NCBI GenBank assembly: GCA_046757765.1 | Contig: JBHHYX010000001.1 | Span: forward strand, 1 to 54,670 | Direction of reading: 5' to 3' | Origin: Acidobacteriota bacterium | Lineage (GTDB): Bacteria; Acidobacteriota; UBA6911; RPQK01; JBHHYX01 | Length of the DNA: 54,670 bases | Part shown: piece after piece, positions 6,730-52,909 of the stretch | Position numbering within the stretch: position 1 is the stretch's first letter | Layout: each line of letters opens with the position of its first letter | Made by a program: the position numbers and the translations under genes | Notes under the pieces: generated by a model | The model's database searches: none | What the model saw: only the letters and a program-made list of their open reading frames with translations | Told to the model about the DNA's origin: nothing

Positions 6730-6840
6730 GCGACCGAGGCCCCCGGAGGCGTAGTGGTGCACTACGTCGAGGAGGCCGAAGCGTCGGCGGGAATGGTTCC
6801 GGCTCTGCAAGTAGCTTGGGTGTGAGAAATGCGGGCTAGC
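6730..6840 (-). repeat. R2 repeat family, long copy (c), abutting the stop codon of the 1159-aa gene
   Basis: The reverse complement reads CTAGCCCGCATTTCTCACACCCAAGCTACTTGCAGAGCC...CCTCCTCGACGTAGTGCACCACTACGCCTCCGGGGGCCTCGGTCGC. It contains the hairpin GTAGTG-CAC-CACTAC. Confidence 0.75.
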
Positions 6841-6841
6841 G

Positions 6842-9800
6842 TCACCGTTGCGCCGGCAGGACCTTGACGGCGATGAGCGACCAGTCGTCCGCTCCCTCGA
6901 ATGTGCCATTGACCGGCGCACCTAAAGCCGGCGTTGCGGTGAAGTCCTGCAGTGTGAGCCACACCTCGTTCGGTCCAATGGAGCTACCAACCCTGGCGCG
7001 CCTCACGTATCCAGGACCCGGTCTGTGCTCGTGACCCCGCGACGTAACAGCCGTAAACAGAAGAGAACGACCCTGGTGCCCCGATAAGTCCATCGAATAC
7101 CCTGTACTGTCCACTCCCCCGGAGCACGCCCCGTCTATTCCGTTCGTGTTGGCCCAAAACTGAACGCCAACGGAAGGGCCGCCGGCCTTTGCCCCGGAGT
7201 ATCGGACTACGGCAATCACCGCATTCCGGGGGGCGGCTGACAGCAAGGCTGTCACTTTCCCGCTTCGCTCTGGCAGTCCCAGGCCACGCCACAAGGAGAG
7301 ACGGGTCTGGTTGCGACCGGAACAACCGGCGCTCACCCTCAACCAGGTCATTCCGAGACCGGAGACCTTGTTCACCTGGAAGCTTCCCGTCGTAGCGACC
7401 GCGGCCAGGTAGAGTTGTCGTCGGGCACCCGTGACCCCGGCCGAAGTGGTGACAACGGGGACTCCCGATGAGCGCCCAGTTTGAGATTCTTCAAAGACGA
7501 GTTCCTTCGTCAGGGGTTCAAATAGAGCCACAACGTTTTTATCCGAATCCATCATGAGGGTGGCGGGATTGCTCGCGGCGTTGATATCGCCACCCCAACC
7601 GCCAAATGCAAAGCCAGTAGCAGGGGTCGCCGTAAGGGTGACCACCGTCCCCGCCGCATAAACCCCTCCCGGCGGAGAAATCGCGACACTGCCGGAACCA
7701 GACGTAGTGAGACTGAGCGTGAACCCCGGCGTGAAGGTGGCCGTCACGCTCTTATCAGCGTCCATCGTGAGTGTCGCCGGGTTGGTGGAGCCGCTCAGGT
7801 CCCCGCCCCACCCGCTAAAGACGAAACCTGCGGCGGCAGTGGCGGTCAGGGTGACTACAGTGCCTTCATCATAAGAGCCTCCCGAGGGGTTGAGACCCAC
7901 AGTGCCCGAGCCCGACAGAGTGACCGACAGGGTGTGGCGTGGAAGGGCAACCGGGCTGGAAAGAATCTCGGCGGCGATAACGGCCCAGTCCACGCTTGCG
8001 CTGAAGGAACCGTTGACGGGCTGCACCGCGACCAGGGGGACTGGCTGGTCTTGCAGGGCGACAGAGGCGACAGATCCGCCAACACCTTGCTGAACCTCCA
8101 CTCGTTCTGTGAAGCCCGCGCCGGGAGAATGCATTTTATTCCGCATGGCCACCGCAGCAAAGACCAGTGAATCATCGGCGCTGGTGGAGAGATCAAAAGA
8201 ATAGGAAGCGCTGTCGGTTCCGCCCGAACAGAACCCACCTGTCCCCGTGGTATTGCCGGAAATTACGTTCCCGATCGGCACGCCACCGCTTGCCCCAGAG
8301 TATCGTGACACTGCGATGACGGCGTTGTCCGCAACGCCCGCCAGGGTTGCCGTCACGTTCCCATTCCCACTCGGAAAGCCTTGCGCTTGCCAGAGGACGA
8401 CTCCAGTTTGATTGCGACCGGAGCATTGTTCTCCTACCGCGGTCCAGCTCAAACCAAGCCCGGACACCGCCACCACCGACTGGTGAGGTTTGGCTGAAAT
8501 CACCGCCAGATACAGATGGTCGGCGGCAGCTACAACATCTGCGGCAGTAGTCACGCCGCTGGATGCGGAGGAAGCACCGGTTTGAACCTCTTCGAAGGCC
8601 ACCGAGGCGCCCAACGGCGCAAAAGTGGCAATCAGGCTGGTATCGGAACGAATCGTCAGGAAGAAGGTGGGGGCGGTCGAGCTGACGTCTCCGCTCCAAC
8701 CCACAAACTCGGCGCCGGGATCAGGTTGGGCCGTCAGGGTAACCACAGTGCCATCTTCGTAGACACCCCCCGGGGGACTCAAACTGACGCTACCCGGTCC
8801 CACGACACTCACCATCAAACTGAATTGTCCGGCTGGGAGCTGGCTGAAAGTGGCGGTGACGCTCTTATCCGAGTCCATTGTGATGGTGGCGGGATTGTCG
8901 AAGCCGGCCAGGTCGCCGCTCCAGGCGCTAAACTCGAAACCGGGGGAGGGCAATGCGGTCAGGGAGACCAGGGTACCCTCCACGTATTCACCGCCCGGCG
9001 GACTCAAATCGACGGTGCCCAAACCCATCGTCTGGACCAGCAGGGTGTGAACGGGTGCCAGGGAAATGTGGTTATGAAGGTAGTATCGACTGGCCTGATC
9101 GCTTGCCAGGACCACCAGACCGCTGGCCAAACCCAGGTTCTGCTTGGTGGAGGTGGCATTGTTGATTTTGGCGTCAAGAGAGCTCTGAATGAAAGGTTGT
9201 CCCAGACCCGATTCGAAATTGATATTGTCGACAGGCGTGCTCTTGAAGTAAATGGCTCCGCCTGACTCGGGGGTGGTGGCAAACACGAACAAGTCATTGT
9301 TGTCCTCGTCGATCAAGACGATGGGCCGGGTATGGTGATCTCTTACAAGGCCGAAAACGTGTCCCAACCAGGAGCCGTCTGGATCGCGCGCCAAGATCAA
9401 GACAAGGGGATCGTCTGAAGCGCTGAGGCTCGTTTTGATGGCCGCAAAAACACGCCCTGTTCCGTCCGTCAACATGGACTTGAGACTAATGTGATCGTCC
9501 GAGGAGGCTCCAGGATCCGGCCCTGGCACGGCGATTGTCGTCACTCCCCACACTTGGTCGCTGTCTCCATCGTGATGCACGGCGAAGTGAAACTTCTTCA
9601 GTTTCTGGTTGCTCCACATGACACCGATCTTGTTGATGCCAAAAGAGATGATGGAAGAGATATCGTCGCTGGTAACGTCTGTGTTCACCACCGGAATCAC
9701 AAACGGCTGGCCCCAGTCCAGATCGCTGGATAGACTATGGTTGACCATCACCTGGCTATTCTCCACATAGGTGACCCAGAGCAGTCCCGTCGAATCCTTG

Positions 9801-10321
9801 GCGACGACCAGCGTCTCGGACTTCCCCCCTGTTACTTCTATTGGAAAGCCCGTATCCAACCCGTAGGAACGGGTCATGCTTTGATAGCTGAAGCGGTACA
9901 GTCTTCCCCACTGGGAAGGACTCGTGGACGGTTGGGCATTTTTTGTGAACACATGGGAGACGATGTAGAGCTTTTGTGTGGTCCCCTCCCAAAGCGCGTC
10001 CGCCAGGCTGTTGCTGCGATCGTCGACAGCGGTTCCCGTGTCAATCCAACACTGCGTCGACGGGTCCAGTTGATAGATGTGATAGCTCTGGGCCGCGTCA
10101 CTGTAAAGACTGCCCCACCAGTATCCGTCGTTGAACCAGAGTTTGCTCTCCGGTTTCTCCCCGGTTGGAGTGGAGAGACTGTCAGAACCATATGAAAAGT
10201 CTCGGTAGCCGGCTTCAGCGGGCGACGAGGGACTGACTCCAGACATCTGAAGAACGCCCGCCAAGAGGGCCGCCATCCCCCTGATCAGGCTCTGGTGCAG
10301 GAGAAAACGGGGAAGGCGCAA
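6842..10321 (-). CDS. Very large secreted protein: N-terminal beta-propeller/sialidase-like region followed by [2 x InlB-B-repeat-like ~75-aa modules + ~190-aa unknown domain] x 2
   Basis: The ORF runs to 10468. The proposed start is TTG at 10321 (MRLPRF...MAALLAGVLQMSGVSPSSPAEA, signal-like). An alternative is ATG at 10276. Four repeats of the type GSGTV.LSPPGG.Y..GTVVTLTA.P..GF.F.GW.GD......NPAT..MD.DKSVTATF were read directly. Two paralogous ~190-aa domains each contain ...LYLA....SGLG(L/M).W..V....SGRNQT....W... Confidence 0.8.
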   Translation of the reverse strand: MRLPRFLLHQSLIRGMAALLAGVLQMSGVSPSSPAEAGYRDFSYGSDSLSTPTGEKPESKLWFNDGYWWGSLYSDAAQSYHIYQLDPSTQCWIDTGTAVDDRSNSLADALWEGTTQKLYIVSHVFTKNAQPSTSPSQWGRLYRFSYQSMTRSYGLDTGFPIEVTGGKSETLVVAKDSTGLLWVTYVENSQVMVNHSLSSDLDWGQPFVIPVVNTDVTSDDISSIISFGINKIGVMWSNQKLKKFHFAVHHDGDSDQVWGVTTIAVPGPDPGASSDDHISLKSMLTDGTGRVFAAIKTSLSASDDPLVLILARDPDGSWLGHVFGLVRDHHTRPIVLIDEDNNDLFVFATTPESGGAIYFKSTPVDNINFESGLGQPFIQSSLDAKINNATSTKQNLGLASGLVVLASDQASRYYLHNHISLAPVHTLLVQTMGLGTVDLSPPGGEYVEGTLVSLTALPSPGFEFSAWSGDLAGFDNPATITMDSDKSVTATFSQLPAGQFSLMVSVVGPGSVSLSPPGGVYEDGTVVTLTAQPDPGAEFVGWSGDVSSTAPTFFLTIRSDTSLIATFAPLGASVAFEEVQTGASSASSGVTTAADVVAAADHLYLAVISAKPHQSVVAVSGLGLSWTAVGEQCSGRNQTGVVLWQAQGFPSGNGNVTATLAGVADNAVIAVSRYSGASGGVPIGNVISGNTTGTGGFCSGGTDSASYSFDLSTSADDSLVFAAVAMRNKMHSPGAGFTERVEVQQGVGGSVASVALQDQPVPLVAVQPVNGSFSASVDWAVIAAEILSSPVALPRHTLSVTLSGSGTVGLNPSGGSYDEGTVVTLTATAAAGFVFSGWGGDLSGSTNPATLTMDADKSVTATFTPGFTLSLTTSGSGSVAISPPGGVYAAGTVVTLTATPATGFAFGGWGGDINAASNPATLMMDSDKNVVALFEPLTKELVFEESQTGRSSGVPVVTTSAGVTGARRQLYLAAVATTGSFQVNKVSGLGMTWLRVSAGCSGRNQTRLSLWRGLGLPERSGKVTALLSAAPRNAVIAVVRYSGAKAGGPSVGVQFWANTNGIDGACSGGVDSTGYSMDLSGHQGRSLLFTAVTSRGHEHRPGPGYVRRARVGSSIGPNEVWLTLQDFTATPALGAPVNGTFEGADDWSLIAVKVLPAQR

Positions 10322-10574
10322 ATGCTGCGGAAGTCCAGGTCCTGTCTCAGGCCTCGAGAGTGACCCCCTCTCAGACCTTCTCTCTTCCTCGGTGCTTCTC
10401 TCGGACAACAAGTATGTCCCTCCCTGGGCGGAATGGGATCCCGGGCGAACCCGAGTTGTTGGCAGCATCTTGGACCTCCGACGACCTCGCGTTCGAGCCG
10501 GTTGGCTAGCCCGGACTATTCACCAGCTTTCTGCTGCGGCGCCGTTATCATCCGCGCTGACTGCGTTGCCCACC

Positions 10575-10624
10575 CTCGACCTCCTCAACGTAATGCACGA
10601 CTACGCCTCCGGGGGCCTCGGTGG
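10575..10624 (+). repeat. R2 repeat family, partial copy (d), inverted relative to copy c
   Basis: CTCGACCTCCTCAACGTAATGCACGACTACGCCTCCGGGGGCCTCGGT matches the reverse complement of 6733-6778 with a few mismatches. It lies between the 1159-aa gene start and the ATP-grasp gene stop. Confidence 0.7.
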
Positions 10625-11893
10625 CTACTTGATCAGAGTATTCCCCGTTCTGACCGGGCGCAGGGCTCGGGTGGGCCGCGCTGCCATCTTCCTCCGCCGC
10701 CGCTTCCCGCCCAGCAGAAGCCTGCCGATTCTGAAGAGATCGTGAAAAAAGGGGGCGGGATCAGTCACGGAAAAGAGGGCACAGGCTTTGCGGCCACGCC
10801 ATGACCGCCACCATTCCTTCAGGGTGAGGTCACCGCGGCACCAATAGTACAAGGCGGACTGCAGATCACGACGCAAGTGAACCCACTTGACGCCGCTAGG
10901 AGGCTGGTGCAAGTTCGGCGGCAGAGGACGACCCACCGTCTCGCAGTACTGTGTGTAGAGGAGTTCTACGCCGCCCGCTTCGGCAATGGCGGATCTCCCC
11001 GTCGGCCGACCGATGTTGGGTTCAATGATATAGTGTTTGCCATCCCGGCGATGGCGTTTCATCTCGATGTAGCCGAGACCTCTGTAGCCGACGCTGCGAA
11101 ACAGGCCAATGCAGGCCTTTTGAACCTCATCATTGCGGCACTCAACGGCCAGGCATCCCATTCCCGTTTCAGGAGGCCACTGCCGAACCTTGCGACTGAC
11201 AAAGGTCACGAGCGGTCGTGAATGGGCATCGAAATAGCAATTACAAGTGTAGAGATTGCCGTCGGGTCCCTCGATCCACTCCTGAACCATGAGTTCCTGG
11301 ACCCACCCCCGGCAACGATCATACAGGACCAGAAACTCGTCCGCGTGCGTCGCCTTGAAGACCTTCTGCCGGGTTTCTCTTTCCCAACCCGGTGTCTTGA
11401 TCGGCGGTTTCAAGATGCAAGGGAAGGTGAGCGACCGGGCCGCCTTCTCGGCGTCAGGCCGACTCTTCAAAAGGAAGGTTCGGGGAACGGGCAAGCCCTT
11501 TTCCTGAGCAAAGGTATAGAACCGGATCTTATCAATCAACGTTTCAACCACGTCCCTTTCGGGCAAAACAACATGGTAGTTTTCCCGCACCAAGTGACGA
11601 TGTCTTGACAACAACAACACGCTCGTGTCTGTGCAGGGAAAGAGCACGGCTTTCGCCCCCAATTCCCGTCCCAGCATTCGGAGTGTCGTGACGAAATCGA
11701 GGCTGGCGGTGTCGGCAAAAAGGATTTTTCGGCAGACTCTCGTACGACAGCAGTAGTGGGTGGGGTCCTTTGCGATAGCGATGACCGGAACTCCGCGACT
11801 GGCGAGTATCCGCGCTGTTTGCAGACCCGTTACGCAGTCGAGTCCGATGACCACGGCAGAGGGATTTTCGATCACTTGGGCACTTGATTGCAT
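10625..11893 (-). CDS. ATP-grasp domain enzyme (carboxylate-amine ligase-like, COG3919-type)
   Basis: ORF 10625..12034 trimmed to the ATG at 11893 (MQSSAQVIENPSAVVIGLD...). It has a pre-ATP-grasp Rossmann-like N-terminus. The ATP-grasp core includes FPCILKP, LMVQEWIEG and YIIEPNIGR. Confidence 0.7.
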   Translation of the reverse strand: MQSSAQVIENPSAVVIGLDCVTGLQTARILASRGVPVIAIAKDPTHYCCRTRVCRKILFADTASLDFVTTLRMLGRELGAKAVLFPCTDTSVLLLSRHRHLVRENYHVVLPERDVVETLIDKIRFYTFAQEKGLPVPRTFLLKSRPDAEKAARSLTFPCILKPPIKTPGWERETRQKVFKATHADEFLVLYDRCRGWVQELMVQEWIEGPDGNLYTCNCYFDAHSRPLVTFVSRKVRQWPPETGMGCLAVECRNDEVQKACIGLFRSVGYRGLGYIEMKRHRRDGKHYIIEPNIGRPTGRSAIAEAGGVELLYTQYCETVGRPLPPNLHQPPSGVKWVHLRRDLQSALYYWCRGDLTLKEWWRSWRGRKACALFSVTDPAPFFHDLFRIGRLLLGGKRRRRKMAARPTRALRPVRTGNTLIK

Positions 11894-11999
11894 CTGGATT
11901 TCTCCGTTTCGTGGCTGCCTCCCGAACCAACAGGAGACGGAAGCGTGACTAGCCCGCGCTGTGCCCCGAAAAAGCCACACCGATGTTGAGTTCAGATTG

Positions 12000-13142
12000 T
12001 CAAGTCGTGATGGATGCGGCGATATTGGCGGCAACGGAGCGGTGGTGGAGGATCTCCGAGTATTTTAGCAGTTGAGCACGGAGAGTTGTCAGCGCGGTGC
12101 GGGATCCAATGTTGATCCGCCGCAAGCGCAGCCGATGGGCGGGGGGGAAAAAGTTGATTCCAGGCTCGGTCGTAAAGGCGAGAAGGAATCCCTCTCTGGC
12201 CAGGAGGCGAACGATTCGGTCCGTAACTCGGCCACCTGGATAGGCGAAAACCGGGAGCACGGGGCCGACCTGGAGTTCCAAATCCCTCATCGAACCGGTC
12301 ACTTCATCGCGAGCCTCTTGCCAAGAGATGTGATCCATCAGCGGATGAGTGCGGGAGTGCGCGGCCAGCGATACGCCTTCACCTGCCAGCCGTCGCAGGG
12401 CGCTCCAGCTCAATACCAGGTTCCGGGGGGAGGGAGCGTCAAGCTGGAAGCAGATCTCCTCCACCAAGCCCATAGCTTCCTGATGCGGCAACGATTCAAC
12501 ACCTCCCTTCAACCGGTTAAAGGACTGATCCCGCTGCCGTGCCGTTTTGAGAGAAAAACGTCCCCAAGGGGTCGACAGCAGGTCCCTTCGCAAGGTGGAG
12601 TGCAGGGCCTGGTGCAGTCGATCCCACCAGAACATCCGCCCGGGTTGTCCCGGAAAAGTGGTGGGCACAAAGAGTGTTGCGGGAAGGCGGTAACGCTTCA
12701 GGATTGGCCAGGCGTGCTCTGAAAAGTCGCGGTAGGCATCATCAAAAGTCAGAAGCACCGCCCGGGGTGGGAGCGTCCTGCCGCGGCGAAAACAATCGAC
12801 CAGCTCCGCCATTGAGAGCACGCGGTAACGAGTCGAAAGGTGCCTCATGTGCTGGTCAAAAACATCCGGCGCAACGGTGCCTCTTGGGTAGAGTAAACTT
12901 CCCGGGTCCGGCCAGTCGACTCTATGGTAAGTCAGAACCCGCAACAGGTTGGGAGTATTCTGATCCCAGTGTTCCAGAAGAGTCACGAATTTGGCAACCA
13001 CTCGGCTCCGAGAGGCCACTGAAACGGCAGTCTTGATCAGCAAACTCATTGACAAAGTTCCTTGCCAGGGCCGCCTAGAGGCCCGAAACAAGTTCACAAA
13101 ACGGTCAAGTCGCGCCAGCGGACAGGCCAGGAGGGCCGACAC
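12000..13142 (-). CDS. Polysaccharide deacetylase (NodB-homology domain) family protein
   Basis: VLTYHRV..., LLTFDDAYRDF, ATLFVPT and AHSRTHPLM are typical NodB-domain motifs. GTG start at 13142, or ATG at 13049. Confidence 0.8.
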   Translation of the reverse strand: MSALLACPLARLDRFVNLFRASRRPWQGTLSMSLLIKTAVSVASRSRVVAKFVTLLEHWDQNTPNLLRVLTYHRVDWPDPGSLLYPRGTVAPDVFDQHMRHLSTRYRVLSMAELVDCFRRGRTLPPRAVLLTFDDAYRDFSEHAWPILKRYRLPATLFVPTTFPGQPGRMFWWDRLHQALHSTLRRDLLSTPWGRFSLKTARQRDQSFNRLKGGVESLPHQEAMGLVEEICFQLDAPSPRNLVLSWSALRRLAGEGVSLAAHSRTHPLMDHISWQEARDEVTGSMRDLELQVGPVLPVFAYPGGRVTDRIVRLLAREGFLLAFTTEPGINFFPPAHRLRLRRINIGSRTALTTLRAQLLKYSEILHHRSVAANIAASITT

Positions 13143-13218: not shown

Positions 13219-13347
13219 CCGAATTCTGAGAATTTCGCTCCCATGCGGCACTGCAAACTGAACCGAAGCGTCAGAGCCCGGCCCAATCCGGATGGCCACT
13301 CACTGACGTTCGTGGTGCAGTCACCGCGCCGGAATCGCTCAACCTGC
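13219..13347 (+). repeat. R1 structured repeat, copy A (internally deleted variant; mini-ORF stop lost)
   Basis: GAATTCTGAGAATTT...ATGCGGCACTGCAAACTGAACCGAAGCGTCAGAGCCCGGCCCAATCCGGATGGCCACTCACTGACGTTCGTGGTGCAGTCA...GGAATCGCTCAACCTG. Confidence 0.85.
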
Positions 13348-13469
13348 GGAACCCAATTTCAAATCTCTCTGGTTAGATTTGGCGCGCCCCGGGTGCTTTC
13401 ACTCCCTTGCTGCCCACACCCGAAAAACGATTGCGCGGTACCGGCGTGAAACCAGCTGGATGAACCGGA

Positions 13470-16644: not shown

Positions 16645-17718
16645 TCAGCGCGCGGAGTTGCCTCCGGGGACCGAATGTGTCCAGTCAGTCCAACCCATGT
16701 TCTTGCCGCAGGCTGTAGGCGAATGGTTCCAGAAGCTGGTTCCATAGAAGTAATCCACCAGCGGCAGTTGCCAGGCGTCGTCCCCCTGGACGGGAAACCC
16801 TGCCTCACGATAGAGCCACTTATAGGCCCGCAGCAAAGCTCGATCCCCCCACTCAAAACTGTCGAAACCCGCACGGTGCAAAATCACTGCTTGGACAATG
16901 GCCCCTTGCAAGGCCTCATAGACGTAGTTTTCATGGGGTGGAGGCCATCTGAACTCGCCGCCCCGACGCTGGTCATCGGGCAAGACACCGTCAATCAAAT
17001 GAGCGCCTTTCCAGCAACCTCTTGGGTTGATTCCGACGGGGTTGTTGGGATCACACTGCCAGGAAAGATCGTTTCCGAACTGGAAACCGTTGTAGGCCTT
17101 TGTCTCACCCAGCCATCCCCTGAAGACCCGGGCAGTGCGCTCCAGTTCTTCCTGATCTCTCAGGTAGGCGGCGACCGCCGCCCGGCTGGCACCCGCATGA
17201 GTACCCCAGTTGTTGGGCCTTTTTTCGTGGGTCGATCGTAGCGTTCTGTCCCGCAGAGGCTCGTCCAGCGTTTCCCCTAACCAGGATCGAAAAGGGCGGT
17301 CTCCAGCTTCTGGAAGGTGGACGAGGTCGGCGGCGATAACGTAGGCGGCCAACTTTCGCCCCAGCGCCAGCGTGCGCCCCCCCCGCTCGCTGCCGATCGC
17401 ATCGAGACAGTGTTGGATCACTTCGAGACGGTATTTCTCTTCTCCGGTGCGGGCATACACGAGAGCCTTGGCCAGAACGCTGACATTGTTGTACTGATCC
17501 TGGTCGCTCAAGTCAGGGGGCCCGGCAGGCCGGTCGGCTCCCTTTTTCAAGCGCGCCCAGGCCCGGCCCCAGGTCGGCAGTTCGGCCAACTCATCCGGGC
17601 TGATCCAGATTCCCTGCTGGTTCTGTCGACCGGGAGGGGCGGCGGCAAGAAGGCTCGCCAGCAAGACCAGGGTGGTGACACTAACGCTAACCAAAAATAT
17701 TTGAAATTTTGATTGCAT
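16645..17718 (-). CDS. Secreted alginate-lyase/heparinase-like (alpha/alpha-toroid) polysaccharide lyase candidate
   Basis: Signal/anchor MQSKFQIFLVSVSVTTLVLLASLLAAA. The internal KRPNNWGTHAG resembles the NNHSYW-type motif of alginate-lyase-domain proteins. Assignment is from memory. Confidence 0.5.
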   Translation of the reverse strand: MQSKFQIFLVSVSVTTLVLLASLLAAAPPGRQNQQGIWISPDELAELPTWGRAWARLKKGADRPAGPPDLSDQDQYNNVSVLAKALVYARTGEEKYRLEVIQHCLDAIGSERGGRTLALGRKLAAYVIAADLVHLPEAGDRPFRSWLGETLDEPLRDRTLRSTHEKRPNNWGTHAGASRAAVAAYLRDQEELERTARVFRGWLGETKAYNGFQFGNDLSWQCDPNNPVGINPRGCWKGAHLIDGVLPDDQRRGGEFRWPPPHENYVYEALQGAIVQAVILHRAGFDSFEWGDRALLRAYKWLYREAGFPVQGDDAWQLPLVDYFYGTSFWNHSPTACGKNMGWTDWTHSVPGGNSAR

Positions 17719-17838
17719 CGGTTGGGCGATTCTGGCGGCAAGTCACTGAACCACGAACGTGAGCGAGTGGCCATCCGGATTGGGCCGGGCGCTGACGCTT
17801 CGGTTCAGTTGACACGGCATGGGCAAGGACCCTCCGCA
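17719..17838 (-). repeat. R1 structured repeat, copy B (mini-ORF 17743..17820, minus strand)
   Basis: The reverse complement reads GGAGGGTCCTTGCCCATGCCGTGTCAACTGAACCGAAGCGTCAGCGCCCGGCCCAATCCGGATGGCCACTCGCTCACGTTCGTGGTTCAGTGACTTGCCGCCAGAATCGCCCAACC. Confidence 0.85.
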
Positions 17839-19496: not shown

Positions 19497-19532
19497 GAGC
19501 TATTCGCCCGGGAGGTTTTAACCTTGGCAGCT

Positions 19533-19748
19533 AGGTTGAGCGATTCCGCCGCCAGGTCACTGAACCACGAACGTTAGTGAGTGGACCATCCGGATTTTGG
19601 CGGGGCGCTGACGCTTCGGTTCAGTTTACAGTGTTCCAGAGTGTTGCATGAAATTTTGTCCCTCGGCTGCTGCCAGTTGCCAGCTCTGAGAAAGGGGCGC
19701 ACGTCGTCAAGACAACGCATCTGAGAGTAAAATTCTCAGAATTCCGCG
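19533..19748 (-). repeat. R1 structured repeat, copy C (longest copy; mini-ORF disrupted by a 10-nt duplication and a frameshift)
   Basis: The reverse complement reads GCGGAATTCTGAGAATTTTACTCTCAGATGCG...CAGAGCTGGCAACTGGCAGCAGCCGAGGGACAAAATTTCATGCAACACTCTGGAACACTGTAAACTGAACCGAAGCGTCAGCGCCCCGCC...CGTTCGTGGTTCAGTGACCTGGCGGCGGAATCGCTCAACCT. Confidence 0.85.
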
Positions 19749-19756
19749 GCAAGCAG

Positions 19757-20395
19757 CTAACAGCCGGAGCGTTGGGCCACCACGCTGAAGCGCCGCAACG
19801 TGCGCATGAGTATGCCGCTCTGGACCGCCAGACGAACAAGCAGCCGCAGGCAGCGCCCCGCAGACTTGCCGCGGACGGAGTGGGTACCGTAAAGCAGGGC
19901 CGCCGGGTCTTGGAGCGGAATGATCCTGGTGCAGGCGGCAAAATCCCTGCAGTGCCAGTAAGCCTCCACTTCCCGAAATCCAAGTTGCTCGAAGGTAGAG
20001 ATGTAGTGGTGAGGATAACAAGGCCGCGCTCCATCTTTTCTCGTCCTGCGGAGCGAGGCCCAAGAGAATGGAGAAGAGCCCTTCCAGTGATGGGACTCGA
20101 CGTAGAGAAAACCTCCAGGCCGGAGCAGGTCAGCCGCGCTCCGCAGTGTCCTGTAGGAGGGTCTGCTGGCGACGGCAACGTCGAAGTGTCCACTGACGGG
20201 GGCGTCGCCCGCCCCCGTCTCGAAAACAGTCAGATCGAAGCTGAACAAGCGCAACGACTCTACCAGTGGCCCGTCGACAACGCCCAGATAGGCCACGCGC
20301 CCTAGATTCGGGTCCGGCAGCAGGAAGCGCCAGTCCACTCGCCGCGAGGCCTCAAGTACGGCGTCGGAACGAGTCAGTGTCTGTTTGGTGATCAA
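19757..20395 (-). CDS. Class-I-methyltransferase-like fold protein (paralog of the N-terminal domain of 25512..27293)
   Basis: 212 aa with a TTG start. It shares DWRFL(L/M)P, an LLRPGGFLYVE-type block and an (E/Q)(A/S)YW block with the N-terminus of the 593-aa protein. I could not identify a clear SAM-binding GxGxG motif. Confidence 0.5.
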   Translation of the reverse strand: MITKQTLTRSDAVLEASRRVDWRFLLPDPNLGRVAYLGVVDGPLVESLRLFSFDLTVFETGAGDAPVSGHFDVAVASRPSYRTLRSAADLLRPGGFLYVESHHWKGSSPFSWASLRRTRKDGARPCYPHHYISTFEQLGFREVEAYWHCRDFAACTRIIPLQDPAALLYGTHSVRGKSAGRCLRLLVRLAVQSGILMRTLRRFSVVAQRSGC

Positions 20396-20586
20396 TGCGT
20401 TCTCCCTGCAAGTTCACCAACTGTCTACTGCAGCGGCGAAATCATCCGGGCTTAGGAGCCCTTTTCTCCGAGGGATTGTAGCGAGGCGCCGGAAAGCCTG
20501 TTCTGGTCGAAGATCCCGTTGTCCCCGCTGCGGGAGCCTGCTCCCTACCGACAGCTATACCCCCTTGCCCAACCTTTGCCCCGTTT

Positions 20587-20736
20587 TCAGAATCTGGCAA
20601 CTGGCTGCAGCCGAGGGACAAGATTTGATGGAACACTGCAAACTGAACCGAAGCGTCAGCGCCCGGCCAGGTCCGGATGGCCACTCACCCACGTTCGTGG
20701 TTCAGTGACTTGGCAGCCGAATTGCTCAACCTGGCT
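20587..20736 (+). repeat. R1 structured repeat, copy D (intact mini-ORF 20628..20708, plus strand)
   Basis: TCAGAATCTGGCAACTGGCTGCAGCCGAGGGACAAGATTTGATGGAACACTGCAAACTGAACCGAAGCGTCAGCGCCCGGCCAGGTCCGGATGGCCACTCACCCACGTTCGTGGTTCAGTGACTTGGCAGCCGAATTGCTCAACCTGG. The stop codon of gene 20726..21991 lies inside the 3' flank of the repeat. Confidence 0.85.
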
Positions 20737-21991
20737 GCCCTGGAGCCTGACCCCACAAGGGGTGGAGAGCATGAAACAGGGCCTGCATGGGCACTGGGTA
20801 GGGGTGGTAGACCGAGTAGGTCTCTTTTCCCGTCAACAACCGGCGGAGGGCCGACCTCTCGAGCTCTTCCACCCCCTCAATGAATTCGTTGCTGGCCTCC
20901 GGGAAAGCGAAGCGAAACTTCCGATAGTAGGACATGAAGCGCATTCGCTCTTCCTGTAACGAAAAGACCATCCGCCTGGCCACCTTGCGCGGGTCGGCGG
21001 GCCGGACGGTGACCCTCGGTTCCCGGTGACTGGCGACAAAGAGAAGGCGCTCGAAAGTGGCCCCATCTTTCGAATTGGGACCGAAGAGATCTCGGGGAGC
21101 AATGTTGATCCACTGCTGATCCTTCAACAAGGCCCTCAGCCGTCGGGCCAGGCCGTGCCAGGCCCAAGAGCGCCCGCTGCTCTGTCGCAAAGCCCCCTCG
21201 ACCAGCCCGACCAGACGGCGCAGCGTCCAGAGCCGGACACGATCACGCCTCCCGATGCAGCTCCGGAACTGGGGCAGGTTCTGGAGGTGCCAGTCCCAGA
21301 TCCGGATAGGCTCGGGAATCCCGTACATGCGTCCCTCATCATTGATGTAGACCCACTCGTCACCCACATAGTTGGCTCCGTTGGCCGCAAACGCCAGCAG
21401 TGTCTCGGTCTTTCCGCCCTTTGCCCAACCGGTGGCCAGAACGCCAACTCCCTGGTAGTCAAAGGCAGAAGCGTGGAGGGGGAGCACGCCCTTGGCAAGG
21501 GCGGTCAGATTGAGAATGGGAACCAGTAGCGGAACAGCCGGCAGCCCCTTTTCACAATGGATATGGCAATGGCCGCCGATCTGGTCAAAAGGAATCCGCA
21601 CTCGGACGCGCGACTTCCCTTTGCCGCTCAAAACAAAAAAGCCGTCACGGCTGAATCCCGCGTCCTCCACGCCAAGATAGCGGAGGGGAGGGTCAGGGAG
21701 CTGGTCTGCAAAGTGAATGACGATCTCAGGCGGACGACCCAGGGGCCTTCGAATGGGCCCCAGTTGCCCGTCTACCGCGGCCACATCACCCGGAGAAGGG
21801 TTGAGCAGGCGCACGCCAACGATGCCGTGGAGATCGTAGTCGACCCGCGTCCGGGCGCGGTCGGCGGTCAGGTGGCGAACAGATCCCTTTCCGAGCAGGT
21901 TCTCTGAACCCGGCCGGTGCTGAGACTCAGAGCTCAGATCCGAAAATCCGGAGGAGCCGGTTTCATGAGCGGAAAGGCCTGTCGCTCCCAT
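20726..21991 (-). CDS. HPr-kinase-C-terminal-domain-like P-loop protein (HprK-related kinase candidate)
   Basis: ORF 20726..22120 trimmed to the ATG at 21991, which overlaps the upstream gene by 29 nt. LHASAFDYQGVGVLATGWAKGGKTETLLAFAANGANYVGDEWVYI resembles the HprK catalytic-domain pattern (H.s.v...G.GvL..G.sG.GKS..al.l...G...v.DD). Confidence 0.5.
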   Translation of the reverse strand: MGATGLSAHETGSSGFSDLSSESQHRPGSENLLGKGSVRHLTADRARTRVDYDLHGIVGVRLLNPSPGDVAAVDGQLGPIRRPLGRPPEIVIHFADQLPDPPLRYLGVEDAGFSRDGFFVLSGKGKSRVRVRIPFDQIGGHCHIHCEKGLPAVPLLVPILNLTALAKGVLPLHASAFDYQGVGVLATGWAKGGKTETLLAFAANGANYVGDEWVYINDEGRMYGIPEPIRIWDWHLQNLPQFRSCIGRRDRVRLWTLRRLVGLVEGALRQSSGRSWAWHGLARRLRALLKDQQWINIAPRDLFGPNSKDGATFERLLFVASHREPRVTVRPADPRKVARRMVFSLQEERMRFMSYYRKFRFAFPEASNEFIEGVEELERSALRRLLTGKETYSVYHPYPVPMQALFHALHPLWGQAPGQPG

Positions 21992-31299: not shown

Positions 31300-31520
31300 T
31301 CTGGTTCTACGTCGCCTCAAGTCACTGAACCACGAACGTGAGTGAGTGGCCATCCGGATGGGGCCGGGCGCTGACGCTTCGGTTCAGTTTACAGTGCTGC
31401 ATGAAACTTTGTCCTTCGGCCCCTGCCAGTAACCAGGCTCTGACAACGAGGCGAAGGCAGGCCAACGGCAAGGGGACCCCGTCAAAACAACGCATCTGAG
31501 AGCAAAATTCCCAAAATACG
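31300..31520 (-). repeat. R1 structured repeat, copy E (intact mini-ORF 31322..31402, minus strand)
   Basis: The reverse complement reads ...GGGAATTTTGCTCTCAGATGCGTTGTTTTGACGG...CAGAGCCTGGTTACTGGCAGGGGCCGAAGGACAAAGTTTCATGCAGCACTGTAAACTGAACCGAAGCGTCAGCGCCCGGCCCCATCCGGATGGCCACTCACTCACGTTCGTGGTTCAGTGAC. Confidence 0.85.
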
Positions 31521-31524
31521 GCGG

Positions 31525-33678
31525 TCATCCGTCGACGATCGCCAAGGCCTGCCCCTCAATTGCGGAAAGGAAATGTGAACCGCCAAAAAGGCTGAACACC
31601 ACAACCGGACCGGTGGATAAGATCTGAAGTGAACCTCCCACCTGTTCGAATTCAGCGCCGAAGAAGCGTGAATCGTCGAGTAAGCCGGCGACCCGCTCCA
31701 GTGCCTCCATCGGGAAGGTGGCTTCTCGCCTCAACTTTCCATTACGTTCATAAACCTGGACGCTCACTGAAATGGGGTCCTGGGACGAATTGAGCAGAGC
31801 GAGTCCCTGAAAAACGCCGGCGGCTTGAGAATGAGCCACATGTGGAAACAGGGTCTGGAGTCGCCCTTTGCTTTCCATGGGCAGGCTGGAGAGTGTATCG
31901 CCGTCAGACCCTTGATAGGTCACGAGACCCGCCAGGCGCCCACGTTCCACCAGTGTGCCCAGGCTTCGGCCCCGATGCAGAATTTCGAGGTATCCCTGGA
32001 TGATGCCATCCTCGTTCTCTACTCGGATCCCGAACAGCTCCCCCAGGTCGGCAACAAAGAGTTCCCCGGCCTGAAGGTGAAGAGAAGCCGTACCGATCTC
32101 ACGGCGATGATCGTCAAAGGCGGTCACCTGCGCGCTGCCGGGCGTTTGCGCGAGGTTCAGCAACCTGAGAGTAGTAGTGGCTCCCTGGTCGGCAATAAAA
32201 AAGTGAGGAGCCACCAGTGTGCCGCTGGAACTTCCCTGCTGGCCACCTATTGCGGCCAGGTTGCGATCCTGGACAAGCAACTCGAAGCCCTTGACGGGAA
32301 GAGTCGAGTCCACTCTCAGGTAGCCATCATGGATGGGAAGCTCGGCATCGAAAGTCGACCTCAATGGAGTGTTGATTGAAGCCAGCGGCTGGAGAGCGAA
32401 GGAAACCTCCTTCACCGTCCCTCCCGCCTTGTCATGGAGGGTGAGTGTTACCCCTGCGTCCTTCCAACTGCTGGGATTGAAGAGGAAAAGAGTAGTCGAC
32501 TCTGAAGTGTTCTCAGGCGTGGCGAGGAAATAGTGCAGAGTCGCTGCCTCCAGCCCTCCACCCACTCCGTCCAATCGGGCCAGTTGCGAGTCGCCGACCA
32601 TGAAGAGGCCCTGAAAAGGCCCCCGCTGGCTCCGAATGACGAGGCTGGCGAGGTCGATCCCACCAGCAGAGAAAACCGATGAAGAAGCCACCTCCATTGT
32701 GGAAGAGAGGTCACTGGTCAAGTGGGAAGTCTGGCCCAAAGCCGGCATGGTCTCCAGTTGAACGAAGCCCTGCTGGCGGCCGCTGGCCGTGTAGCCCTCG
32801 ATATTGAGGGAGTTGGGCTGGTCGCTGAGGTTCACCGCGGCGAAAGCGACAAAGGAGTCATCGAAATCAGCCCTCGAGGGCAACGCCAGCACTTCCCGTG
32901 GAGAAGTGAAGCAAAGGAGACTTCCATCCACATCAGCGACCAGGCAGGTCCGATCCTGGCCGATGTTGGCAATTCCCTCGGGGTCCCCTATGCCCAGAGC
33001 CTCGGGAGTCGAGAGCGTCTCAATCAGTTCTCCCGCGGTTGAGACCCGGTAAATGGTCTTGGAGGCGTCGGCGTCATCGGTGATCAACAAATCCGTGCCA
33101 TAAAAGGCAAGGCCTTGAGGTTCACTGAATCCCGGCACCAAAGCGCTGGTACTGAAAGAGCTGAGGACACGCCCGGTGCGATCGACCTCAGAGACGGTTT
33201 CATTACTGTCGTCCGCCACAAAGATGTGGCCCGTGATGGGATGGATGGCAATACCATCGGGGGCGCTTGGAGGAGAAAGAGAGAGGTAGACGTCCACAAG
33301 ACTTCCATCTGGTGCCACCTTGAAGATGATTTCGCTTCCCCGACAAATGAGAAGGTCACCGGTCACAGAATCATAGGCAATTCCTTCAGGCTTTCTGATC
33401 TCAGGGATGTCGAACGAACTCACAACCCCTCCCGAAAGGGTGAGCTCGAAGACTCGGCCAGGGTTCTTCGCTACCAGGAAGAGTGTCTGCCGCTGGGGGT
33501 GATAGGTGACCCCTTGCGGGTCGTTGATCCCCAGGGCGCGAAGATCGACCCTGAGCGGCTCTTCGACCTTGAGCTGAGCCTGGGCTGTGAGGGAAAAAAG
33601 GCAGAGACAAGCCAGCGCGACGGTAAGGGCACTGCGCCAACGTCCAACTCCTTCCGGCCCAAACCGGGGCAGTCTCAA
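31525..33678 (-). CDS. Secreted beta-propeller protein (NHL/SdiA-regulated-like repeats) with a large C-terminal beta-rich region
   Basis: The ORF runs to 33834. The proposed start is TTG at 33678 (MRLPRFGPEGVGRWRSALTVALACLCLFSLTAQA), with ATG at 33759 as an alternative. It contains repeated motifs of the type PEGIAYD / PDGIAIHP / PQGLAFY / PEGIANI. Confidence 0.7.
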   Translation of the reverse strand: MRLPRFGPEGVGRWRSALTVALACLCLFSLTAQAQLKVEEPLRVDLRALGINDPQGVTYHPQRQTLFLVAKNPGRVFELTLSGGVVSSFDIPEIRKPEGIAYDSVTGDLLICRGSEIIFKVAPDGSLVDVYLSLSPPSAPDGIAIHPITGHIFVADDSNETVSEVDRTGRVLSSFSTSALVPGFSEPQGLAFYGTDLLITDDADASKTIYRVSTAGELIETLSTPEALGIGDPEGIANIGQDRTCLVADVDGSLLCFTSPREVLALPSRADFDDSFVAFAAVNLSDQPNSLNIEGYTASGRQQGFVQLETMPALGQTSHLTSDLSSTMEVASSSVFSAGGIDLASLVIRSQRGPFQGLFMVGDSQLARLDGVGGGLEAATLHYFLATPENTSESTTLFLFNPSSWKDAGVTLTLHDKAGGTVKEVSFALQPLASINTPLRSTFDAELPIHDGYLRVDSTLPVKGFELLVQDRNLAAIGGQQGSSSGTLVAPHFFIADQGATTTLRLLNLAQTPGSAQVTAFDDHRREIGTASLHLQAGELFVADLGELFGIRVENEDGIIQGYLEILHRGRSLGTLVERGRLAGLVTYQGSDGDTLSSLPMESKGRLQTLFPHVAHSQAAGVFQGLALLNSSQDPISVSVQVYERNGKLRREATFPMEALERVAGLLDDSRFFGAEFEQVGGSLQILSTGPVVVFSLFGGSHFLSAIEGQALAIVDG

Positions 33679-33806
33679 CAGAGGGCTGCGGGCTGATTCA
33701 GGACCCGCTATCTGGCAGAGGCAGGCGTCGGCACATTCCTTCTCGCGGGAGCCTTCCATTCCATCAGTCCTCCCACCGGGCCGGGATCCTCTCCCGGATG
33801 TCCGCC

Positions 33807-34967
33807 TCAGCCTTCTTGTCGTTGCTGTTTCCATAGTTCAATCCTTCGCCCGCGAAGCAGGTTGATAAAGGCCAACAGAGCACAAGTATTAGCCAGACAA
33901 TAGAAGAACGGCAGCAGGAGAAACTTGGACTGTCCTGCCGGCTGACGTCTGAGAACGTATCCGATTGCAGCGGCAGCGTAAAAAAGAATCTGTAAGAGAG
34001 TCAGACTCGCATACAGGAGGCCGGAGGAGCTCAGAACCATCCCCGAAACCAACAGCATTGGAAGAACAAACGGCACCAGCCGGCGGAGCAACTTGTGAGA
34101 AAACAGGATGATTGAATAAAATCCGAATCGAAACGGATTGAGAAGTTTCTTCCTCAGAATGAGGCCTCGAAGTCCTCTGGTCATCAACCGTACCTTGCGC
34201 GAGAATTCCTGCTCGGCAGTCGGGGAGGCTGCCTCGTAGGCACGGGCCTCGGCCTCAAAAATCAACCGGTACCCTTGCTCGATGACTCCCGTTGAAAGGG
34301 CAAAGTCATCGGTGACAGCCGGGTCGAGGGGAAGCTGGTAAAGTTGCCGGCGAATGGCATACACTGCCCCATCCGCCGAGACCGTGCTTCCACTCAATGA
34401 TTCCAGAGATTTCAGCCACTTATCATACGACCAATACAGCCGCTCACCTCTGCTGATCGACTCGCTCTCGGAGGGGATGCGGTAAATCTTGTTGCCTACC
34501 ACCCCTCCCACTCGAGGATCCGCGAAGGCTCGCACCAGCTTCAACAAGGTTTGCCGCTGGTAAAGGATGTTGGCGTCTGAAAAGACGAGTATCTCGCCGC
34601 AAGACCGTTCCGCCGCTCGATTGAGAGCGTGCGCCTTGCCGCGCCTGGGCAGCCGGAGAAGCCTCACAAGGGGGGCGAAACCGGAGACGATGGAGTCGGT
34701 CGAGTCATTCGATCCATCGGAAGCCACAAGAATTTCGAGCTTCGAGGAAGGGTAGACCAGAGACAATGCATTGTCTAGGCGCTGGCCGATGTTCTTCTCT
34801 TCATTGTAAGCGGCGATGATGAGCGAGACGGAAGGGGTCACGGATTCCTTCCGCACAGGAGAACGAAAGAGAGCGGCAACGATTGCCAGAAGAACCGGGA
34901 AACCCAAGTAGACGTAAGCGATGAGGCCAACTGAGAGCCAAAATGTGAAGGTCCAGATGCTGAGCAT
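33807..34967 (-). CDS. GT2-family membrane glycosyltransferase
   Basis: VSLIIAAYNEEKNI, ILVASDGSNDST and ILVFSDAN (DxD) are present. TM helices lie at both ends, giving a processive-GT2-like architecture. Confidence 0.8.
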   Translation of the reverse strand: MLSIWTFTFWLSVGLIAYVYLGFPVLLAIVAALFRSPVRKESVTPSVSLIIAAYNEEKNIGQRLDNALSLVYPSSKLEILVASDGSNDSTDSIVSGFAPLVRLLRLPRRGKAHALNRAAERSCGEILVFSDANILYQRQTLLKLVRAFADPRVGGVVGNKIYRIPSESESISRGERLYWSYDKWLKSLESLSGSTVSADGAVYAIRRQLYQLPLDPAVTDDFALSTGVIEQGYRLIFEAEARAYEAASPTAEQEFSRKVRLMTRGLRGLILRKKLLNPFRFGFYSIILFSHKLLRRLVPFVLPMLLVSGMVLSSSGLLYASLTLLQILFYAAAAIGYVLRRQPAGQSKFLLLPFFYCLANTCALLAFINLLRGRRIELWKQQRQEG

Positions 34968-35819: not shown

Positions 35820-36027
35820 TACAGAATCTCTCAGACAGTCTTGTAGTGTGAGAGGTTGAGATGTGGGGGCGGGAATAACCGAAAACAAGCAACGCGGGCT
35901 AGTAGTGGCTTGTTGCGAAAGTCTTTTCCCTCTATGGGCGAGCAATTCTTGCCGCCGGAGTGGACAGTTTATGAATAATCCTCGGGGTGGGAGAATCTGT
36001 CATCTCGATCCAGGTTTTTGAGGCTCC

Positions 36028-36100
36028 GGCTCGGTATCAGTATCGCAATCGACGGCGACAGCGATGGCGAACCCGATTGGGATACCGATGAAGACGCGGC
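36028..36100. repeat. R3 hexamer-periodic element, copy 1
   Basis: GGCTCGGTATCAGTATCGCAATCGACGGCGACAGCGATGGCGAACCCGATTGGGATACCGATGAAGACGCGGC. The core ATCGACGGCRAYWGCGATKGCGAACCCGATTSSGATACCGAKGAAGACGCGGC is shared with 52412..52468. Confidence 0.7.
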
Positions 36101-36143
36101 TAACCGACCGCTGGTCGGTCTGAGGCACCGCCTCGCTATGATC

Positions 36144-38982: not shown

Positions 38983-38998
38983 GCAAGAACTGTGCCAA
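38983..38998 (-). promoter_or_regulatory. sigma54 (RpoN) -24/-12 promoter
   Basis: The minus strand reads TTGGCACAGTTCTTGCC. This is an exact match to TGGCAC-N5-TTGC with GG-N10-GC spacing. It lies next to a sigma54 enhancer-binding protein gene. Confidence 0.8.
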
Positions 38999-40753: not shown

Positions 40754-41224
40754 CACTCTGGCCTTTTTCAACTCCGAACCCTTTCTCGCCGCCCAGAACC
40801 TGGACTTGGACAAACTCCCCCGGGGCCGCCCGGTAAGAGACGAGCGGCACCCCCCCCTTTCCTCCAGAACTGGTCTGAACAAGCTGGAGCCTTGGACTCT
40901 GCGGTGAGAGCAGCGACACCTCACCTCCATACCCCTGCCCGTCAACGACGACAGTTGCTTCGAAAAGACACCGATTTTAGGACGAACGAATGATTAGCGG
41001 TTGACATGCTACACGAAGGAGTGGCGAAAAGAAAGCGTTTTCTTGCGCCGACGTGCAAGGGACCGGCACCCATCCCCTTGGAAAGAACACTTCACTTGAG
41101 TTTGACGAAACCCAGTCAACCCGGTAAGCCCCACGCGCCGAGCCCGTCAAGGGAGGCGGCGCCTGCCGCGGAATCTCACTCGGCATTTACTTTTGGCACA
41201 GCAACCTGGAGAATAAGATTTTGT

Positions 41225-52157: not shown

Positions 52158-52411
52158 CTTCCGGCAAGGCGCCATATCGCGCTCAGTTTAACAAAAACAA
52201 CTGGAAAGGGAAAAATCTTCCGTCACTCGAGGCATTCGCGCTGTAGATGTTTTCAGCCTGACGGCTTCAGGGAATCTGATCGGGTTGTGGCCGACAGGAG
52301 GCTCAAGTCGCCACCGGTACAAGGATGTCCGATCAGTTCACCTGTTTCCACCCTTTTCGCGCTCTTTCAAAAACACTACTCCGTATCGCGCCAGCTACGC
52401 CGCCGGCCGTT

Positions 52412-52468
52412 GCCATCGACGGCAATTGCGATTGCGAACCCGATTCCGATACCGAGGAAGACGCGGCC
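52412..52468. repeat. R3 hexamer-periodic element, copy 2
   Basis: GCCATCGACGGCAATTGCGATTGCGAACCCGATTCCGATACCGAGGAAGACGCGGCC. On the reverse strand it shows a 6-nt periodicity of the type ATCGNN. Confidence 0.7.
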
Positions 52469-52909
52469 ACCGGTCCTCTGGGGCTTCCACATCAACCCCA
52501 TTCAGGCGCCGGGATGAGAAGTCCTGGAGCAAGAAGGAGGAGATATCGATCAAGCCGATCCGTCAACTCGATCTGCGCCCCCGCCGGGGCTTCAGGTCAA
52601 GCCTGGCCTGCATGGCGAGATGTGGACGAGGGCACGGGTTAGATAGGGACGCAACCGGAGCTGTTGTGAAAAAGCGCGGCAGTGTCGCCGGCAGTTCCAG
52701 ATTGGGAGGGATGGGAGAGAAGATAGAGGGGGGCGGGGGGCTTGCTCGCTCTTTTGGCTTGATTGGCGACAGGAGCAAAGAAAGGGGTTGGATGGTCGTG
52801 TTGCCGCCAGAAGTTTTCTCTTCCAGCCCAGTCTAGATGTAACCTCATCGGGCTTGAAGCGTTCTCCCTCCCCTTGCGCGAGTCCTCGGAAAGCATCGCC
52901 TCTTTGGTC

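Follow-up and report, generated by a model that had tools for sequence, protein, structure and literature searches.

R1, a probable mosaic palindromic repeat family at gene junctions of an exopolysaccharide operon in an Acidobacteriota bacterium

The window examined here is the entire 54,670-bp contig JBHHYX010000001.1 of an Acidobacteriota metagenome-assembled genome (MAG; locus tags ACE5JX_...), which has a G+C content of about 58% and carries nearly all of its genes on the minus strand. Eight window ORFs are identical to proteins deposited for this MAG. Scans with Pfam and NCBIfam models revealed a Wzx/Wzy-type exopolysaccharide cluster that begins near 38.5 kb and continues to about 10.6 kb. 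It encodes Poly_export and Bac_transf proteins, GT2 and GT4 glycosyltransferases, a Wzz/tyrosine-kinase protein, a Wzx flippase, a Wzy-like polymerase, two APH-like phosphotransferases, P-loop kinase-like proteins, a weak HprK-like protein, a weak PF14907-like/P-loop fusion, an alginate-lyase-like protein, a polysaccharide deacetylase and an ATP-grasp protein. The operon is preceded by a sigma-54 activator gene, and the 910-nt gap between this gene and Poly_export (start at 38453) contains a perfect match to the sigma-54 -24/-12 element, a predicted promoter that probably serves the whole polysaccharide operon. The subject of this study is R1, a repeat found in five copies (A to E) between genes of this operon. 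The original prediction, made from the sequence alone, had proposed that a short open reading frame (the mini-ORF) embedded in R1 belongs to a family of small peptides, possibly precursors modified by enzymes of the same locus, and had offered, as its fallback, that a conserved hairpin produces the frame incidentally. The evidence favours the fallback. We consider it moderately probable that R1 constitutes a family of mosaic intergenic palindromic repeats, lineage-specific and not described before, which would act as an mRNA stem-loop if it is functional, and that its ORF is inherited by descent.

The five copies of R1 lie at 13.2, 17.8, 19.6, 20.6 and 31.4 kb and share an imperfectly palindromic core of 66 nt. 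The core has the ends ACTGAACC...GGTTCAGT (also written ACTGAACCGAAGCGTCAG...ACGTTCGTGGTTCAGT), TCCGGA at its apex is invariant, and the apical loop has an invariant 3' half, UCCGGAUGG, and a variable 5' half. Two 19-mers, AACTGAACCGAAGCGTCAG and ACGTTCGTGGTTCAGTGAC, each match the same five sites only (chance expectation 0.01), and a covariance model of the core detected no sixth copy within the window. The optional modules U1, U2, D1 and D2 are combined differently in each copy, and the copies are 137-224 nt long (Table 1). Upstream, about 110 nt are common to copies A and E, and about 60 nt with the purine box and the ATG are common to A, D and E; downstream, about 30 nt past the stop are shared by A, B, C and D, and a further 30 nt by B and C. 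Homology between the copies exceeds the mini-ORF by 60-150 nt upstream in three copies and by about 30-55 nt downstream in four, and identity is 89-97% in the core versus 73-92% in the flanks. Since the homology runs far past the mini-ORF and the core is better conserved than the flanks, the ORF is not the conserved unit. Each of the operon's five largest gaps, of 236-330 nt, is filled by one copy, while the rest of this long operon is tightly packed. Copies A, C and E are oriented in the gene sense directly before start codons, and copies B and D are antisense. R1 is thus a multicopy, intergenic and dispersed element that is present in both orientations and consists of an imperfect palindrome with mosaic modules.

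Table 1. Positions of the R1 copies, their mini-ORFs and Shine-Dalgarno (SD)-like boxes, and the sigma-54 features of the window.
Feature	Position	Strand	Remarks
R1 copy A	19526..19749	-	gene-sense, longest copy; U1+U2+core+D1; core 19626-19559; spans the gap between the stop of gene 19757-20395 and the Wzy start (19496), ending 60 nt before its ATG
R1 copy B	13240..13376	+	antisense; U1 fragment+core+D1+D2; core 13256-13321
R1 copy C	17687..17823	-	gene-sense; core 17810-17745; its end lies 24 nt upstream of the alginate-lyase-like gene's ATG (17718)
R1 copy D	20562..20739	+	antisense; U2+core+D1; core 20641-20706
R1 copy E	31318..31524	-	gene-sense; U1+U2+core; core 31389-31324; begins directly past the stop of gene 31525-33834; its end lies 33 nt upstream of the ATG (31288) of a hypothetical gene of 283 aa
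Mini-ORF, copy B	13243..13449	+	stop TGA changed to TCA; read-through across D1 and D2 to 13449
Mini-ORF, copy C	17743-17820	-	intact; 25 codons, 3 nt being deleted compared with the other copies; MPCQLNRSVSARPNPDGHSLTFVVQ, then stop
Mini-ORF, copy D	20628-20708	+	26 codons and TGA; MEHCKLNRSVSARPGPDGHSPTFVVQ, then stop
Mini-ORF, copy E	31322-31402	-	intact; MQHCKLNRSVSARPHPDGHSLTFVVQ, then stop
SD-like box, copy C	17835-17830	-	GGAGGG
SD-like box, copy D	20613-20618	+	GAGGGA; 9 nt upstream of the ATG
SD-like box, copy E	31417-31412	-	GAAGGA
Sigma-54 activator gene	39365-40945		upstream of the exopolysaccharide operon
Sigma-54 -24/-12 match	38983-38997	-	TGGCACAGTTCTTGC

Three details of the modules touch neighbouring genes. 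First, the extra homology between copies B and C corresponds to the first codons (about 10) of the alginate-lyase-like gene that follows copy C: positions 13325-13376 (plus strand) of copy B align with 17742-17687 (minus strand) of copy C, past R1 and into signal-peptide codons, reading TQFQISLV versus MQSKFQIFLV of the gene. From this alignment, copy B is an inverted relic of a duplication of R1 plus gene start, D2 being a decayed copy of the gene start after copy C. Second, the end of the HprK-like gene (20726-20739, minus strand), with the final four codons (GQPG) and the stop (20726-20728), comes from module D1 of copy D, indicating that the repeat reshaped the 3' end of a gene. Third, module U1 holds a small hairpin, at approximately 19720-19700 (minus strand) in copy A (TCTGAGA-N7-TCTCAGA) and approximately 31495-31475 (minus strand) in copy E (TTTGGGA...TCTCAGA). 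It stands directly 3' of the stop of the upstream gene and is followed by a T-rich run, and the two differences between A and E are compatible with pairing solely through G-U on the gene-sense RNA. The U1 hairpin could be a weak terminator.

Translation of the window confirmed the mini-ORF as first described, with the same coordinates and peptides and with four ATG frames among the five copies, and likewise the loss of the stop in copy B and the 10-nt duplication in copy A. Together with two 1-nt insertions in the core, this duplication destroys the frame of copy A. The purine boxes of copies C, D and E were also read as predicted and at the predicted spacing, including that of copy C, where the upstream sequence is otherwise dissimilar. 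In copy D, the ATG and codons 2-5 lie 5' of the hairpin, and codons 6-26 and the stop lie inside it. Counting the copies outside the window described below, start, frame and stop are intact in only three of at least seven R1 copies; one copy is frameshifted, one has no stop and two have no start Met. When the four copies with a continuous frame were compared, their 16 variant sites comprised six synonymous and 10 non-synonymous changes in the peptide frame, a sample of low power, and the other five frames gave three to six synonymous changes (neutral expectation 24%). Some synonymous variation is present, as first described, and there is no frame-specific synonymous excess in the six frames compared at these 16 sites. 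Among the "synonymous" changes, two (A60G in copy C and C63G in copy B) convert stem mismatches to pairs. No Pfam or NCBIfam family matched the peptide. A start, frame and stop kept across the copies, with an excess of synonymous change as the mark of purifying selection, would be expected of a small-protein family and were not found for the mini-ORF. About 13% of random composition-matched 130-mers hold an ATG ORF of 20-40 codons over such a core, and a mini-ORF that was present in the founder copy is inherited with the repeat thereafter.

R1 was then sought beyond the window. A protein search with a concatemer of the four peptides, proposed in similar form as a check of the peptide family, matched only two ORFs among 5.8 billion proteins, P0001 and P0002, which come from other contigs of the same MAG. 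Both carry ...LNRSVSARPNPDGHSLT(FVVQ) as the C-terminus of mutually unrelated "hypothetical proteins" and have no Met at the position of the mini-ORF start. P0002 is cut by its contig end within the R1 core, and two Logan contigs of the same sample likewise terminate inside the core; such assembly breaks are typical of a multicopy repeat. In total, R1 amounts to at least seven copies on three contigs of one MAG. The depositor's annotation called none of the five window copies as an ORF, as judged from consecutive protein accessions and locus tags, so protein searches under-count the family. No homologue of the peptide outside this MAG was detected among the 5.8 billion proteins, and a concatemer of the other open R1 frames gave no matches in the protein search. 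At the nucleotide level and with the thresholds applied, Rfam returned nothing at gathering score for R1 and only noise at E up to 10 (8 kb and a 221-nt slice). The two-part core pattern had no match in GTDB species genomes and a single chance match in JGI metagenomes (L001), which was unrelated on inspection; core 19-mers had no match in IMG/VR, and blastn of the longest copy against plasmids and phages gave none. A genome scan for close relatives with the Wzz/kinase protein gave only one match, in Akkermansiaceae at 25% identity. Longer proteins that end in the R1 peptide (ORFs of 107, 152 and 173 aa here, and called proteins of 82 and 74 aa elsewhere) were rejected, as their upstream parts are mutually unrelated and Arg/Cys/Pro-rich, with flat G+C at codon positions 1, 2 and 3 (GC1/2/3). 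Retron and selenocysteine/read-through readings were rejected on anatomy.

Related clusters were available for comparison, namely L005, L006 and L007, drawn from JGI, Logan and ENA, and one further JGI contig. They contain orthologues of the HprK-like, nucleotidyltransferase (NTase)/kinase, P-loop, APH, glycosyltransferase and Wzy proteins at 33-63% identity, the closest Wzy homologues being 55% identical. Neither the R1 core, searched with the covariance model, nor a similar peptide occurs in these four. Their intergenic gaps are mostly -31 to 50 nt compared with the 236-330 nt at the R1 sites of the window; the kinase-like and NTase-like orthologues have gaps of 2-50 nt, and the relatives of the genes downstream of gene-sense R1 lie 3-18 nt from the preceding gene or overlap it, which indicates that these genes are translationally coupled there. 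Since the related clusters are compact and free of R1, R1 is a lineage-specific addition to a widespread cluster type, absent from the orthologous sites in these distant relatives. The relatives are distant (at most 63% protein identity), and their lack of R1 shows lineage specificity, not a precise empty site. The cluster type itself (Wzy-like with HprK-like, PF14907-like/P-loop, P-loop-kinase and APH-like proteins) recurs in distant metagenomic lineages with shuffled gene order, and in L007 it adjoins a nonribosomal peptide synthetase-like/sulfotransferase gene.

These comparisons bear on the idea that the mini-ORFs are multicopy precursors of ribosomally synthesised peptides that carry post-translational modifications (RiPPs), or other small proteins, which the HprK-like kinase, the NTase-like protein or the ATP-grasp ligase would modify. 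HprK homologues and nucleotidyltransferases tailor some lasso peptides, and HprK-type kinases phosphorylate a C-terminal Ser (PMC8498205). Like the precursor loci of lasso peptides and graspetides, R1 places a short ORF near HprK-like, NTase-like and ATP-grasp genes, three ORFs are intact and preceded by an SD-like box, and Cys4, like most of the residues, is conserved, alongside some synonymous variation. Homologues of the three tailoring enzymes do exist in the cluster as was originally proposed, but they are weak: the HprK-like gene matches Pfam at E=0.006 and NCBIfam HprK_rel_B at E=0.0018, the PF14907-like match (E=0.012) is below threshold, and the ATP-grasp gene (10625-12034) matches CPSase-like/RimK-type models and is separated from the nearest R1 copy by the deacetylase gene. 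The kinase-like and NTase-like enzymes that were tied to the peptide are moreover conserved without R1, in compact orthologous clusters that hold no such ORF. Unlike precursor genes of lasso peptides and graspetides, the ORFs are scattered in both orientations and do not lie beside the enzymes, and the core enzymes and hallmarks are missing: when practically every window ORF of 100 aa or more was scanned with Pfam/NCBIfam models, there was no lasso cyclase (Asn-synthetase-like), no B1/B2 protease (transglutaminase-like) and no PqqD-type RiPP recognition element. Lasso precursors are marked by a leader with a penultimate Thr, a core that starts with Gly, Ala, Ser or Cys, and Asp or Glu at core position 7-9. 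The R1 peptide has no penultimate Thr and no Gly1/Asp-Glu7-9 geometry, its sole Asp standing two residues past the sole candidate Gly (the Gly before PDG is found in the copy D peptide only); it ends in ...TFVVQ, with Gln and not Ser at the C-terminus, and its single acidic residue makes graspetide cross-link sets impossible, since a graspetide core holds several Thr/Ser/Lys donors and Asp/Glu acceptors and is encoded beside a dedicated ATP-grasp ligase. With only three intact copies of at least seven, DNA conservation far past the ORF on both sides and no homologue outside this MAG, the proposal of a family of RiPP precursors or small peptides is already largely refuted, and we regard it as extremely improbable.

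Based on these observations, we favour an intergenic repeat. Through duplication, recombination or non-autonomous transposition, copies of R1 would have reached junctions at which the genes had at first been translationally coupled. Transcription of either strand would give a core stem-loop that, if functional, most likely works within the operon mRNA by blocking 3' exonucleases, as a site of processing or as a partial terminator. The stem-loops could in this way segment the expression of the transcript of about 28 kb, as the repetitive extragenic palindromes (REPs), bacterial interspersed mosaic elements (BIMEs) and stem-loops of selective RNA processing and stabilisation (SRPS) do. The ATG...TGA frame and the purine box would have been present in the founder sequence and inherited with the repeat, and not maintained as a peptide gene. 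Stem-loop elements internal to operons are documented (PMC4423207, PMC8219983). R1 is of interest mainly for annotation. The family is undescribed and belongs to an Acidobacteriota lineage that has been little sampled; assemblies break at its copies, it gives rise to spurious "hypothetical proteins", of which two are deposited for this MAG, and its mini-ORF can be mistaken for a RiPP precursor family owing to the neighbouring kinase-like genes. If its stem-loops do segment a sigma-54-driven 28-kb transcript, or if its mini-ORF couples translation, R1 would represent the domestication of a repeat inside an operon.

R1 was compared with the closest known elements. REP/BIME and SRPS stem-loops, for example those of the Clostridium cip-cel operon, resemble R1 as multicopy imperfect palindromes that are intergenic, occur in both orientations, form mosaics with flanking modules, stand between genes of one operon and give an mRNA stem-loop from either strand. 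R1 differs from them in its longer core (66 nt versus 20-40), the lack of a GTAG-type 5' motif, the lack of a known REP-associated tyrosine transposase (RAYT), the few known copies, the lack of sequence similarity and an RNA effect that is putative. Miniature inverted-repeat transposable elements (MITEs) such as Correia/NEMIS, ERIC, RUP and BOX, and the Rickettsia palindromic elements, are non-autonomous repeats of 100-250 nt at gene junctions that can add codons or stops, and these hairpin-core elements can carry promoter- or ribosome-binding-site-like boxes and short ORFs without being peptide genes. R1 shares with them the donation of the last codons and stop of the HprK-like gene by D1, but beyond the core arms neither terminal inverted repeats nor a target-site duplication could be defined for it, and its boundaries vary among copies, which suggests recombination rather than clean transposition. 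Type I toxin-antitoxin repeats (Ibs/Sib "QUAD" and Ldr "LDR") are intergenic units of a few hundred nucleotides in which an SD and an ORF of about 19-35 codons are combined with strong RNA structure. R1 is likewise a repeated intergenic unit with an SD-like box, a short ORF and RNA structure, but the toxin reading was rejected: the R1 peptide has neither a hydrophobic run nor a membrane helix, being hydrophilic and basic, the frames are decayed, and no antisense RNA gene is evident. The consensus of integron attC sites ends in RYYYAAC...GTTRRRY. R1 is a palindrome of attC-like length, and its ends ACTGAAC...GTTCAGT match this consensus at 6/7 positions each, but an attC site was rejected as well, since the window holds no integron integrase, orientations are mixed, up to seven genes lie between copies, and these are ordinary operon genes and not cassettes.

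We also need to consider the observations that weigh against R1 being such a repeat, which concern its folding, the translation signals of the mini-ORF, and its spread and distribution. With regard to folding, the core hairpin returns in every single-copy and whole-leader fold, with a predicted stability of about -20 to -39 kcal/mol whichever strand is transcribed. This stability is only modestly above that of shuffled sequences (z 0 to -3.4), and for copies A and E the whole gene-sense leaders do not exceed shuffles in stability. No covariation was found in the stem, whose columns hardly vary; covariation is uninformative for this reason, and an RNA function of R1 is something that we infer. 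A dedicated, strand-specific structured RNA, either a cis-acting antitermination or leader element of the operon or a small-RNA family, might instead explain why the copies are enriched inside the operon, why the core is more conserved than the flanks, why the loop is invariant in its 3' half and variable in its 5' half, and why the U1 differences between A and E keep their pairing by G-U alone, on the gene-sense RNA; a protein that binds the invariant GGA at the apex, in the manner of CsrA, is one possibility, as an idea only. Such a strand-specific element is quite improbable in our assessment, given that R1 occurs in both orientations, has no Rfam family and no covariation, shows weak fold z-scores, is absent from the related clusters, and folds 4-8 kcal/mol better on the strand opposite the mini-ORF in every copy. 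Scans for sigma-70 promoters and intrinsic terminators gave nothing tied to R1. Two sigma-54 promoter candidates were rejected: the one in module U2 (CTGGCAACTGGCTGCA) has the spacing GG-N9-GC instead of N10 and is not kept in copy E, and the one in D1 of copy D (20711-20725, plus strand) has one mismatch and is not conserved in the other copies, the overall count being at chance level.

With regard to translation, an SD-like box stands 9-10 nt before the ATG in copies D, E and A, and also in C despite the dissimilar upstream DNA. The three genes that follow gene-sense copies (starts at 17718, 19496 and 31288) have no SD, while most window genes with an ATG start have one. In each of A, C and E, the mini-ORF stop shares its frame with the next ATG, across spacers of 60, 24 and 33 nt, the frame has no stop across 202 upstream intergenic codons where about five are expected, and the GC1/2/3 values of the mini-ORF (0.62/0.49/0.70) resemble those of real genes. 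The upstream intergenic DNA shows no coding periodicity. These coincidences arose from post hoc checks, each weak on its own. The SD-like box, the SD-less next genes and the frame coincidences keep a translated upstream ORF (uORF) alive as a minority option. Under this explanation, the SD loads ribosomes that melt the hairpin and terminate 24-33 nt before the SD-less start in copies C and E; R1 would have split formerly coupled genes, and termination and reinitiation would restore or tune the next gene, with copies A, B and D decayed or non-functional. Beyond the signals above, it fits the position of the box and the ATG outside the core hairpin, the plausible annotated starts of the three SD-less genes (signal-peptide-like or transmembrane N-termini, and the Wzy alignment) and the coupling of these genes in the relatives (3-18 nt or overlap). 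The co-oriented layout of SD, ATG and stop before a gene is present only in C and E, however. Two of the five copies, B and D, face away from any gene, all that copy A retains before Wzy is a remnant of seven codons, with its end about 125 nt upstream, copy B has neither box nor stop, and the two copies outside the window have no Met. There is no synonymous excess, fold and terminator scans showed no terminator/antiterminator alternative and no regulatory codon run, and in the minimum-energy folds of the gene-sense leaders of A and E the SD-like box is paired with an upstream pyrimidine box. We therefore regard a regulatory uORF as rather unlikely. A portable translation cassette is clearly unlikely as well; here, a selfish repeat with its own SD and a hairpin-embedded uORF would have invaded coupled junctions of the operon and been domesticated as a tunable coupling device, in which ribosomes on the uORF open the stem and pass to the SD-less gene, and that the peptide itself is a substrate of the cluster kinases is less likely.

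With regard to spread and distribution, Pfam/NCBIfam scans of the window detected neither a transposase nor an integrase or RAYT gene, and visual inspection of the R1 copies yielded no definable target-site duplication, so the mode of spread is unproven. In addition, none of the five window copies lies outside the operon, where most of the window's intergenic DNA is located, which suggests a local role or local spread and not random dispersal. The location of all window copies at module junctions within the operon would also suit a recombination substrate, whose inverted copies (B/C, C/D and D/E) invert and whose direct copies delete gene blocks, or a scar of module shuffling; the outcome would be phase-variable or rapidly reshuffled polysaccharide synthesis. 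The inverted pairs share 69-151 nt at 83-93% identity and bracket blocks of 2.8-10.6 kb, gene order varies among the related clusters, and copies B and C share the duplicated gene start. Against this, the genes in the block are at present all co-directional, no site-specific recombinase is nearby, and no alternative junctions were seen, in assemblies that break at R1. We consider a role of R1 in such rearrangements very unlikely.

Two other repeats were noted in the window. The direct repeat D5 (81% identity over 70 nt) corresponds to two paralogous ORFs of 41-42 aa with one membrane helix each, at 36000-36128 (minus strand; ...RVFIGIPIGFAIAVAVD...) and 52376-52501 (minus strand; ...RVFLGIGIGFAIAIAVD...), the former ending 55 nt upstream of the priming glycosyltransferase gene. 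The D5 ORFs have no significant match to Pfam or NCBIfam, with one sub-threshold Pfam match to DUF7670 (E=0.051), and by their sequences they look more protein-like than the R1 mini-ORF. Finally, a 50-nt inverted repeat (6730-6779 and 10576-10625, 90% complementary) brackets a gene for a 1208-aa InlB-B-repeat (Flg_new_2) protein at 6842-10468. This inverted repeat is a second repeat family, and each of its arms contains an inner palindrome, GTAGTG-GTG-CACTAC.

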